Assembly: GCA_964421625.1 (NCBI GenBank)
Contig: CAYQXR010000002.1
Span: 2,698-66,697 of the forward strand
Origin: an uncultured Gemmatimonadaceae bacterium
GTDB lineage: Bacteria; Gemmatimonadota; Gemmatimonadetes; Gemmatimonadales; GWC2-71-9
Direction of reading: 5' to 3'
DNA length: 64,000 nucleotides
In this document: piece by piece, positions 57,009 to 59,252 of the stretch
How positions within the stretch are numbered: position 1 is the stretch's first letter
Layout of the letters: each line of letters starts with the position of its first letter
Translations under genes and position numbers: made by a program
Notes under the pieces: generated by a model
Seen by the model: the letters and a program-made list of their open reading frames with translations, nothing else
Told to the model about the DNA's origin: nothing
Databases searched by the model: none

Positions 57009-59252
57009 GTGGCAACTCATAGCGACGAATGGATGCGGGCGATCATCGCCCCGATGCTCCCGGCAGACACCCTGGCCGGTCTGGGCGATGGCGATGGCAA
57101 GCATACGCTCTGGGAACGGGTGGTACAGGCCCGACTGGTGGCGGACGAGACCATTGTCGAGGCTGTCGCGGAGCGCTCCCGCCTCCCAGTGGCCGATCTG
57201 CAGCAGTCGACCGAAGCGGCCCGCGACGCCCTGCCTGAAGTGCTGGCGCGCCGCTATGGCGTCCTACCCCTGCTGCACAACGAACATCGTCTTGAGGTTG
57301 CCACCAGCAATCCCTTCGATCTCGGCGCGGAGCAGGCCCTGGCCTTCGCCACCGGTCTCGAGATCCGGATGGCCATTGCCTCGCCGCTGCGGATCAGCGA
57401 GCGGATCGACGAACTGTACCGCGGCATGGCGCACGGGCGGAGTGTCACGGATCTGCTCGAAGGCATGGGCGACATGGAGGTCACCGAGCTCGTCGACGGT
57501 GACGACGCCGACGACCACATGGACGAGGCGGGCTCCCAGCCCATCATCAAACTCGTCAACGTGCTGCTGACCGACGGCATCACCTCGCGGGCCAGCGACA
57601 TCCATATCGAATCGGGCGAGCAGTCGGTCCTGGTCCGCTACCGGATCGACGGTGTGCTGCGGCACGCCATGACCATTCCCCGCAAGGCCGGCATGCCGCT
57701 CATTTCCCGCATCAAGATCATGTCGGGACTTGATATTGCCGACCGGCTGCGACCCCAGGATGGCCGGGCCCGCATTGCCGTCGGCGGCGACCCGACCGAC
57801 CTGCGCATCTCCACGCTGCCGGCCACCCACGGCGAGAAGGTGGTCATCCGCGTCCTGTCGTCGCGCACGACCACGCTGTCGCTCGATGCGCTCGGTCTCT
57901 ATCCCGACGAGCAGGTGACCATCCGCAGCATCCTCGAGAACAAGGAGGGGATCTTCCTGGTCACCGGGCCGACCGGCTCCGGCAAGACCACGACGCTCTA
58001 CTCCTGCATCCGGTCGATCCAGGGTGAGGGGATCAACATCGTCACCGTTGAGGACCCGGTGGAGTACCGCTTGGGGCAGAACATCGTCCAGGTACAGACC
58101 AATGAGAAGCAGGGACTGACCTTCGCGGCGGCGCTGCGGTCGATTCTCCGGCAGGATCCCGACGTGGTGCTGGTCGGCGAGATCCGCGACATGGAGACCG
58201 CGCAGATCGCCGTCCAGGCCTCGCTGACCGGCCACCTGGTGCTCTCGACACTGCACACCAACGACGCGCCCAGCACGGTGACCCGTCTGGTCGACATGGG
58301 CATGGAGCCGTTCAAGATCGGCGCGGCCCTGCGCGGCATTCTGGCGCAGCGCCTGATGCGCCGCCTCTGTCCGGCCTGCCGGACACCCATGTCGCCGGAA
58401 GAGGTCCCCCTGCGGCTGCAACCGCACCTCCCGGTCGGCGCGCCGCTCTGGAAGGCGGTCGGGTGTCCGCAGTGTACCCAGACCGGCTACCGCGGGCGGT
58501 TCTCGATCGTCGAAATCCTGGTGATGAATCCGGAACTGGAGCGGCTGGTCGGCAACAATGTCACCAGCGACCGGATTGGGGAAGCGGCCAGGGCCGCAGG
58601 CATGGTCACCCTCTTCGAATGCGGGCTCCGCCATGTGCTCGACGGGCACTCCACTACGGAGGAGCTGCTGCGGGTGACCGACCCGCCGTCCGAACGGAGC
58701 GGACAGCCCAGGGAAGCGGCTGCGCCAGTGTCACCACCGGTGACGACTCCCATGACGGTGCCGGTGAGTCCGGCCGCTCCGGTTGCGGTACCCAGTCCCG
58801 GGGCCCTGCTCGACGACCTCGAATTGCTGGATGATCCCGGCAGTGGCCTGGTCACCGATGCGGCGGAAGCCAAAGCCACGATTCTGCTGGTCGAAGACGA
58901 GGACACCCTGCGTCGGGTGATGCGCGATCTGTTGGAGCAGGAGGGCTTTGCCATCTGCGAGGCCCGCGATGGCGCTGAGGCGCTGGAACAGGTGGATCGC
59001 TTCAATCCCGACCTGATGATTCTCGACCTGAATCTGCCCAATGTCGACGGCTACACCGTGCTGACGCAACTGCGGTCGCACGCGCGCACGCGGGACCTGC
59101 CGGTGCTGGTGCTCTCGGCCCGGGGCGATGAGGACAACGAAGTGCGGGTGCTGCGGCTGGGGGCCACGGACTTCCTGACCAAGCCCTTCAGGCCCCGGGC
59201 ACTCGCGGCGCGGCTGGATGCGATTCTGTCACGGAGCCGGGGGCTCGGCTGA
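57009..59252 (+). CDS. type II/IV secretion-system ATPase (GspE/PilB family) fused to a C-terminal response-regulator receiver domain
   Basis: Track ORF with a non-ATG start at 57009 (ATG 57033 is an alternative). The N-terminus is T2SSE_N-like. ATPase core: Walker A GPTGSGKTT, Walker B DPDVVLVGEIRD, His box TGHLVLSTLHTND, and CPAC...CPQC. A Pro/Ala-rich linker follows. The receiver domain covers aa ~623-740 (LLVEDED, MILDLNLP, SARG, TKPF), with no intervening stop. Confidence 0.85.
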   Translation: MATHSDEWMRAIIAPMLPADTLAGLGDGDGKHTLWERVVQARLVADETIVEAVAERSRLPVADLQQSTEAARDALPEVLARRYGVLPLLHNEHRLEVATSNPFDLGAEQALAFATGLEIRMAIASPLRISERIDELYRGMAHGRSVTDLLEGMGDMEVTELVDGDDADDHMDEAGSQPIIKLVNVLLTDGITSRASDIHIESGEQSVLVRYRIDGVLRHAMTIPRKAGMPLISRIKIMSGLDIADRLRPQDGRARIAVGGDPTDLRISTLPATHGEKVVIRVLSSRTTTLSLDALGLYPDEQVTIRSILENKEGIFLVTGPTGSGKTTTLYSCIRSIQGEGINIVTVEDPVEYRLGQNIVQVQTNEKQGLTFAAALRSILRQDPDVVLVGEIRDMETAQIAVQASLTGHLVLSTLHTNDAPSTVTRLVDMGMEPFKIGAALRGILAQRLMRRLCPACRTPMSPEEVPLRLQPHLPVGAPLWKAVGCPQCTQTGYRGRFSIVEILVMNPELERLVGNNVTSDRIGEAARAAGMVTLFECGLRHVLDGHSTTEELLRVTDPPSERSGQPREAAAPVSPPVTTPMTVPVSPAAPVAVPSPGALLDDLELLDDPGSGLVTDAAEAKATILLVEDEDTLRRVMRDLLEQEGFAICEARDGAEALEQVDRFNPDLMILDLNLPNVDGYTVLTQLRSHARTRDLPVLVLSARGDEDNEVRVLRLGATDFLTKPFRPRALAARLDAILSRSRGLG

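Follow-up and report, generated by a model that had tools for sequence, protein, structure and literature searches.

PilB-type motors set the time and place of pilus extension, and the route by which signals reach these motors is an active question. The routes known so far use diffusible regulators, such as PilG, PixG and DrdR, or cyclic di-GMP (c-di-GMP). In Synechocystis, PilB1 is bound by PixG only when PixG is phosphorylated (PMC11181946), and in Xanthomonas the receiver protein DrdR stimulates the ATPase activity of both PilB and PilT, to which it binds (PMC13507683). In all of these trans systems with CheY-like regulators (PixG, PixE and PixH of Synechocystis, PilG of Pseudomonas and DrdR of Xanthomonas), a receiver controls a PilB-type motor, with the PixG-type proteins acting largely through their PATAN domain. 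MshE of Vibrio cholerae (PMC5013675), for its part, has its regulatory input built in, given that its N-terminal domain binds c-di-GMP. Here we describe a gene at 57009..59252 (+) of a 64,000-nucleotide stretch, hereafter the window, from contig CAYQXR010000002.1 of an uncultured Gemmatimonadaceae bacterium, in which an ATPase of the PilB/GspE type is fused to a C-terminal CheY-like receiver. Our reading, to which we assign a probability of roughly 0.6, is that this fusion protein is the extension-type motor of a Gemmatimonadota type IV filament machine and is regulated in cis by phosphorylation.

The gene is complete, encoding 747 amino acids (aa) plus the stop codon from a GTG start, and its translation contains no in-frame stop. 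The public gene call begins 8 codons downstream of this GTG and yields 739 aa; we prefer the start at 57009 because D6 and W8, which the later start would omit, are nearly invariant in the family alignment of fusion-protein relatives. The earlier note on this DNA, made from the sequence alone, had described a single open reading frame (ORF) with four modules in series and without a stop or frameshift between them, and this description holds throughout: Pfam recovered MshEN at aa 58-140 (61 bits), T2SSE at aa 173-555 (439 bits, covering model positions 2-370 of 370) and Response_reg at aa 625-736 (112 bits), with the linker between the last two. The N-terminal MshEN-like domain (aa 30-145, 57096..57443) is made of helices followed by an alpha/beta subdomain and is modelled by AlphaFold2 with a predicted local distance difference test score (pLDDT) of about 90. 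It is followed by the secretion-ATPase core (aa 171-558, 57519..58682), which holds the Walker A motif GPTGSGKTT (320-328), the Asp box (348-352), the Walker B motif DPDVVLVGEIRD (383-394), the His box TGHLVLSTLHTND (407-419) and, by motif search, a tetracysteine motif of the zinc-binding type, CPAC 454-457 and CPQC 486-489 (58368..58475), of which C454, C457, C486 and C489 are all invariant in two family alignments (A1 and A4). The flexible Pro/Ala-rich tether (aa 559-622, 58683..58874), delimited by its sequence variability and by AlphaFold2, is indeed rich in Pro, Ala and Val, as had been described, and leads into the CheY-like receiver (aa 623-742, 58875..59234). The receiver carries the motifs LLVEDED (626-632), MILDLNLP (670-677), SARG (703-706) and TKPF (724-727), which together supply the acidic residues E629 and D630, the phospho-acceptor D673 (codon GAC, 59025-59027), S703 and K725. 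Each of the motifs lies at the residue which the earlier note had given for it.

These features assign both halves of the protein to well-known classes. The full-length model match, together with the Walker A, Asp box, Walker B and His box motifs, places the ATPase in the T2SSE superfamily (PF00437), and its MshEN-type N-terminus and tetracysteine place it in the extension-type (PilB/GspE) subgroup, with the PilT models scoring only 177 bits. In parallel, the five active-site residues and the (beta-alpha)5 fold identify the C-terminal module as a receiver (PF00072). In the AlphaFold2 model the N-terminal domain, the ATPase and the receiver reach a pLDDT of about 85-97, the receiver being built from five strand-helix units at 94-97, and aa 564-618 are modelled as disordered with a pLDDT below 50. 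The predicted template modelling score (pTM) of the monomer is 0.49, and the model therefore predicts no set placement of the domains relative to one another; a fixed docking position of the receiver, which we looked for in this monomer, is likewise not predicted, so that the mechanism is not settled by the model.

The fused architecture is strongly conserved among the relatives of this protein. Counting protein clusters at 90% identity in a search space of 5.8 billion proteins, we found 120 clusters with 60-72% identity to the fusion protein, all of them with MshEN, T2SSE and Response_reg, and with named members belonging to Gemmatimonadota, Gemmatimonadales or Gemmatimonadaceae. A profile search added 116 further clusters of identical architecture at 53-59% identity, and overall the fusion is present in at least 235 Gemmatimonadota clusters (53-72% identity). 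Across 236 relatives, the ATPase core (aa 171-558) and the receiver (aa 623-742) each have a mean identity of 72% to the window protein with little variation in length, and E/D629, D630, D673, S/T703 and K725 are retained by every one of 119 family members. Receiver and ATPase core are equally well conserved, with purifying selection of equal strength on both, and the earlier description of a complete CheY-like receiver is borne out by a phospho-acceptor pocket which is not only intact here but strongly constrained across the family. The linker behaves very differently, since its portion at aa 559-603 has a mean identity of 17% to the window and a length of 23-68 residues in the same 236 relatives, always in frame. 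Within this otherwise hypervariable and disordered linker, one short acidic and hydrophobic motif, LLDDLELLDD (aa 600-609, 58806..58835), is conserved in the relatives with the family pattern L-x3-[LF]-E-L-[LV]-[DE]-[DE] (of 237 rows, 235 have L606 and 199 have E605), and this motif may be a docking peptide.

Compared with the motors of known structure, the fusion protein is closest to PilB. Among solved structures, it is matched best by the Myxococcus xanthus (3jc8, 401 bits) and Geobacter PilB proteins, at about 400 bits over aa 26-559, followed by Vibrio EpsE with 372 bits over the core only. With PilB (M. xanthus 3jc8; Geobacter 5tsg, 6olj and 5zfr) it shares the MshEN-type domain, the N2/C-terminal core, all of the ATPase motifs and the tetracysteine, and it differs in its C-terminal extension, which consists of a tether (about 60 aa) and a receiver (about 120 aa), a combination found in no solved chain matched in the structure-database search. 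It also differs from PilB in lacking the c-di-GMP motif, in not lying beside pilC or pilD in Gemmatimonadota, and in its score of 518.1 bits with the PilB equivalog TIGR02538, which is below the cutoff of 675.65. With GspE/EpsE (Vibrio cholerae EpsE, 1p9r and 4ksr) it has the ATPase core and the zinc motif in common, but its N-terminus is longer, it has the C-terminal receiver, and no gspC, gspF, gspL or gspM gene is nearby; its score with the GspE equivalog TIGR02533 is 551.4 bits, again below the cutoff (630.25). The PilB model matches the N-terminal region from position 28, whereas the GspE model matches only from aa 75.

The likeness to MshE lies in having both a built-in regulatory input and an MshEN-type N-terminus, with the important difference that in the fusion family the phospho-receiver sits at the opposite end of the protein and the 24-residue c-di-GMP motif is missing. 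Even in a relaxed form, this motif was found in 0 of 120 family members and is absent from the query; among 150 wider representatives, at least one copy was present in 12. Sensing of c-di-GMP by the N-terminal domain was therefore discarded on the basis of a motif search that was negative in 120 of 120 family members, and the c-di-GMP input has probably been lost in the fusion family, to judge from this motif.

Beyond the Gemmatimonadota, an exhaustive HMMER search of 1.84 billion representatives at 50% identity was made, with the domains mapped locally on the best 150; given that the query itself contains a receiver, the ranking of these 150 is biased. A C-terminal receiver is present in 116 of the best 150, at 37-58% identity to the window protein, with the order N-terminal domain, ATPase and receiver in 92, ATPase and receiver in 22, N-terminal domain, ATPase and three receivers in 1, and N-terminal domain, ATPase (as a split hit) and receiver in 1. 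The receiver precedes the ATPase at the N-terminus in 3 of the 150, and tandem ATPases of about 1000 aa (for example P0126) account for 13. In the wider set (n = 114), D630 and D673 are kept in 106 and K725 in 107. The pairwise divergences of ATPase and receiver are correlated across 107 representatives (r = 0.42, a value reached in 0 of 500 permutations), which is consistent with an old fusion that has been mostly vertically inherited. The rarity of the fusion implied in the earlier note is thus contradicted by these 116 representatives and by the Gemmatimonadota clusters described above. That note had also raised the prospect of an architecture both common and already functionally described, of which the first half proved right and the second did not: JGI annotates such fused proteins as 'PilB-like protein/CheY-like', and the literature, searched under several names, gave no paper describing or testing a PilB or GspE ATPase with a C-terminal receiver.

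More distant carriers of the fusion show which genes it can be associated with. In the locus L023, the fused gene (P0167, 38% identity) is the first gene of a type IV pilus-like cluster that comprises a prepilin peptidase, a T2SSF platform, three N_methyl pilins, a PilM-like gene, PilO, a secretin and a PilT-like ATPase, together with a weak T2SSC match, and that adjoins a Wza/Wzc/Wzy polysaccharide cluster. The fused gene is the sole PilB-like gene of this cluster, and the orphan status implied for the fusion in the earlier note accordingly does not extend to the family as a whole. Elsewhere, P0136 (45% identity, locus L025) has a single receiver and an N_methyl gene downstream; P0273 (L027) has kinases and receivers all around it; P0274 of Zixibacteria (L028) has an N_methyl gene upstream and a hybrid kinase and a receiver downstream; P0272 (L031) comes after a CheW/MCP/CheB cluster, a sigma-54 regulator and receivers; and P0177 (L032) is an orphan. 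In this way the wider family has ties with type IV filament genes as well as with two-component and chemosensory signalling. As for the Gemmatimonadota themselves, genome surveys report type IV pilus genes in members of the phylum from all environments except the marine one and give about 0.83-0.95 PilM copies per genome (PMC10581226), and PilY1 homologues have been reported in the phylum as well (PMC13190605).

We propose that the motor would belong to a type IV filament machine whose partner genes lie elsewhere in the genome and which is most likely a type IVa pilus, and that a disordered tether, about 55 residues long, would link it to its phosphorylatable receiver. A histidine kinase or a chemosensory CheA-type kinase would phosphorylate D673, after which the receiver would alter the motor output: it could dock on the ATPase ring, could dimerise in a PhoB-like manner with the receiver of the adjacent protomer, or could bind platform proteins. 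The second of these options is considered because the closest similarities of the receiver are to the PhoB/OmpR and PleD types. Filament extension would in this way be switched on or off by the state of the receiver, and phosphorylation perhaps replaced c-di-GMP as the motor input. From the likeness to described motors and from the gene contexts given above, we infer the pilus role, the kinase involved, and how and in which direction the motor would be regulated; phosphorylation gating of the motor would follow by analogy with the trans systems, and phosphorylation control is made more plausible by the hybrid kinases, single receivers and CheW/MCP/CheB cluster (named for CheW, a methyl-accepting chemotaxis protein and CheB) which adjoin the relatives. 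The fusion would then be, by the same analogy, a cis counterpart of the regulation of PilB in trans by PixG and DrdR. As in those systems, some of the fused relatives adjoin chemosensory genes; unlike the diffusible trans regulators, the receiver is here covalently tethered, with one receiver per protomer, and in contrast with the PixG-type proteins the fusion protein has no PATAN domain.

The gene context of the fusion in Gemmatimonadota is of another kind than that of L023. The window has a G+C content of 69%, with abundant long spurious ORFs, so that genes were chosen by their third-position G+C, and about 50 candidate genes across its 64 kb were scanned against Pfam. These are housekeeping genes, among them nadABC, ETF and ETF-QO, IMPDH, purD, glmM, glmS, dtd, maf and a chorismate-binding enzyme, and also engB, clpX, clpP and tig, together with one GGDEF protein and a sigma factor of the ECF (extracytoplasmic function) class. 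No T2SSF/PilC, secretin, PilM/N/O, prepilin peptidase, N_methyl pilin or histidine kinase was found by Pfam among these genes, and in a tblastn search of the L023 pilus proteins against the window only the ATPase itself was matched; the earlier claim that the window contains no platform, pilin, secretin or PilMNOPQ gene is thus upheld by both approaches. In Gemmatimonadota the fusion gene is always found in one and the same housekeeping block, whose order runs through glmM, glmS, dtd, maf, a divergent chorismate-binding enzyme, an outer-membrane protein of 665-697 aa and the fusion gene, which is usually followed by a NUDIX gene and then by a convergent set ending in engB, clpX, clpP and tig. 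Given that L023 has the full cluster, the separation of the fusion gene from its partner genes is a matter of Gemmatimonadota gene order and not of the protein family.

The outer-membrane protein of this order is, in the window, a 670-aa gene at 54912..56924 (+), upstream of the fusion gene and co-directional with it, whose product has a signal peptide and a C-terminal Phe. The earlier label of an Omp85-like barrel is right according to AlphaFold2 (pLDDT 87, pTM 0.84) and Foldseek, in which the C-terminal half matches TamA, BamA, Toc75 and Sam50 at E-values as low as 2e-9; the N-terminal half forms a domain rich in beta structure, whose only match, a faint one, is to DUF5686. Its 373 homologues carry only Gemmatimonadota names and are all annotated as 'hypothetical'. 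In all Gemmatimonadota loci seen, with relatives at 68%, 62% and 54% identity, the barrel gene immediately precedes the fusion gene, and this pair of barrel gene followed by ATPase gene persists down to 54% identity, with the other neighbours changing. Downstream, a 155-aa NUDIX gene with an intact Nudix box lies directly after the fusion gene in 12 fetched loci (for example L001 12417-12887, L002 12335-12820 and L029 14569-15036), and no NUDIX homologue is present in this window. Two related proteins, P0130 and P0141 (51% identity to the window protein), are MshEN-T2SSE-NUDIX fusions without a receiver, and P0183 (54% identity) has a C-terminal tail which is the same by sequence as that of these two. 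Over its entire length, the NUDIX part of P0130 shares 45-47% identity with the free-standing NUDIX neighbours, and the existence of ATPase-NUDIX fusions in relatives is therefore a hint of a functional link between the NUDIX protein and the ATPase.

Several points weigh against a cis-regulated pilus motor in this organism. The NCBIfam score for GspE is slightly above that for PilB, both being under their equivalog cutoffs; neither the window nor the 10 kb around any examined Gemmatimonadota copy contains a platform, pilin, secretin or kinase gene; and the conserved neighbours, namely the Omp85-type barrel and the NUDIX protein that is fused to the ATPase in some relatives, are not known pilus components. 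The link from the fused ATPase to a pilus machine in Gemmatimonadota is thus indirect. Another objection, that there is no fusion at all and that a missed stop or frameshift has joined neighbouring ATPase and receiver genes by an error of assembly or annotation, can be set aside for practical purposes, since the same continuous architecture recurs in the Gemmatimonadota clusters from independent NCBI, ENA, JGI and Logan assemblies, some with contigs of more than 3 Mb; the linker also differs in length among the relatives with the frame never broken, and the ORF in the window is open over its entire length. A better case can be made for a type II secretion ATPase of the GspE type, in which the receiver would couple exoprotein secretion to a two-component signal. 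TIGR02533 is the best NCBIfam match, the tetracysteine motif is common to GspE, the EpsE core scores nearly as high as PilB, and the L023 cluster includes the weak T2SSC match. We consider this alternative unlikely, given that even the GspE score falls under its own cutoff, that the N-terminus at aa 30-145 is of the longer PilB/MshE type, that L023 has the PilT-like retraction ATPase, the PilO and the PilM-like gene typical of type IVa pili, and that pilus genes, PilM and PilY1 among them, have been published for the Gemmatimonadota. A pilus extension motor is accordingly favoured, though only tentatively, over a secretion ATPase because of the long PilB-type N-terminal match and the pilus-type cluster of L023.

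The conserved neighbours raise the other question of whether the Gemmatimonadota ATPase has been recruited from filaments to some other process, linked to the envelope or to nucleotides, in which it would work with the barrel and the NUDIX protein and would have the receiver as its input. The constancy of the barrel gene, which at 54-100% identity stays directly upstream as other neighbours vary, speaks for such a recruitment, as do the NUDIX gene downstream in 12 loci, the NUDIX-type fusions and tail in relatives with 51-54% ATPase identity, and the absence of nearby pilus genes in the tblastn search with the L023 proteins. On the other hand, synteny in the phylum extends over the entire glmS-to-tig block, so that the adjacency is perhaps just conserved gene order, the NUDIX homologue is missing from this window altogether, and the barrel gene is not beside the fused ATPase in any of the six distant loci (L023, L025, L027, L028, L031 and L032). 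To our knowledge, there is also no precedent for a PilB-type ATPase that functions without a platform protein. On balance, recruitment appears quite improbable, and its most specific form, in which the ATPase would supply both energy and signal input to a phosphorylation-gated envelope system not described so far, built with the phylum-specific barrel, with its non-POTRA N-terminal domain, and the NUDIX protein, is a long shot.

If the fusion protein is the phosphorylation-regulated pilus motor that we favour, its covalent receiver provides a 1:1 and genetically simple system for testing how a phospho-receiver acts on a hexamer, and it points to two-component control of surface filaments in the Gemmatimonadota, a phylum common in soil and freshwater with few cultures. 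The significance is limited in that the fusion joins two well-known modules whose interaction in trans is already established, in an architecture that is common, so that it is conceptually unsurprising as a fusion of known parts, with its regulation proposed by analogy. In a broader view, this clade of PilB-type ATPases repeatedly gains C-terminal signalling modules, which include the receiver, receiver-GAF, PAS-GGDEF and NUDIX. Among the related ATPases, besides P0130 and P0141 with their NUDIX module, we observed PAS-GGDEF in P0239, receiver-GAF in P0214, and a double zinc ribbon, a receiver and a long tail at the C-terminus of P0151, P0164 and P0175; P0137 is also among the related PilB-type ATPases with variant C-terminal modules.

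Some further features of the locus deserve mention. Upstream of the barrel gene, the 704-aa ORF at 52810-54924 (-) was considered as another fusion and rejected, given that only a chorismate-binding homologue of about 500 aa aligns, at aa 212-700. Between the barrel and ATPase genes, a regulatory RNA or terminator was also considered, and no terminator-like site was found; the intergenic folds are not more stable than those of shuffled sequences, and not conserved, in the window and in 4 of the 5 relatives tested. The exception is L010, in which the segment 9880-10003 upstream of the fusion gene has repeats of the GGCCCCT type and a fold with z = -3.6 against shuffles. On the other side of the fusion gene, the convergent ORF which the earlier note had called an acyltransferase is present at 59275-60798 (-), with a maximal length of 507 aa and with its stop 22 nucleotides from that of the fusion gene; its label is weakly supported, as the Hexapep match of 22 bits is below the cutoff of 27. 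The real gene there is probably one of about 280 aa, since the relatives have a 279-aa gene in this place. About 40 kb from the ATPase, the window also encodes a GGDEF diguanylate cyclase of 393 aa (17444-18625, +). Finally, a single-domain receiver gene of 128-129 aa lies beside tig in relatives (L001 18956-19342; L002 19648-20037), about 7 kb downstream of the fusion gene, a place which here is just past the end of the window; it is possible that this single receiver is a partner of the fusion protein in the same phosphorelay.

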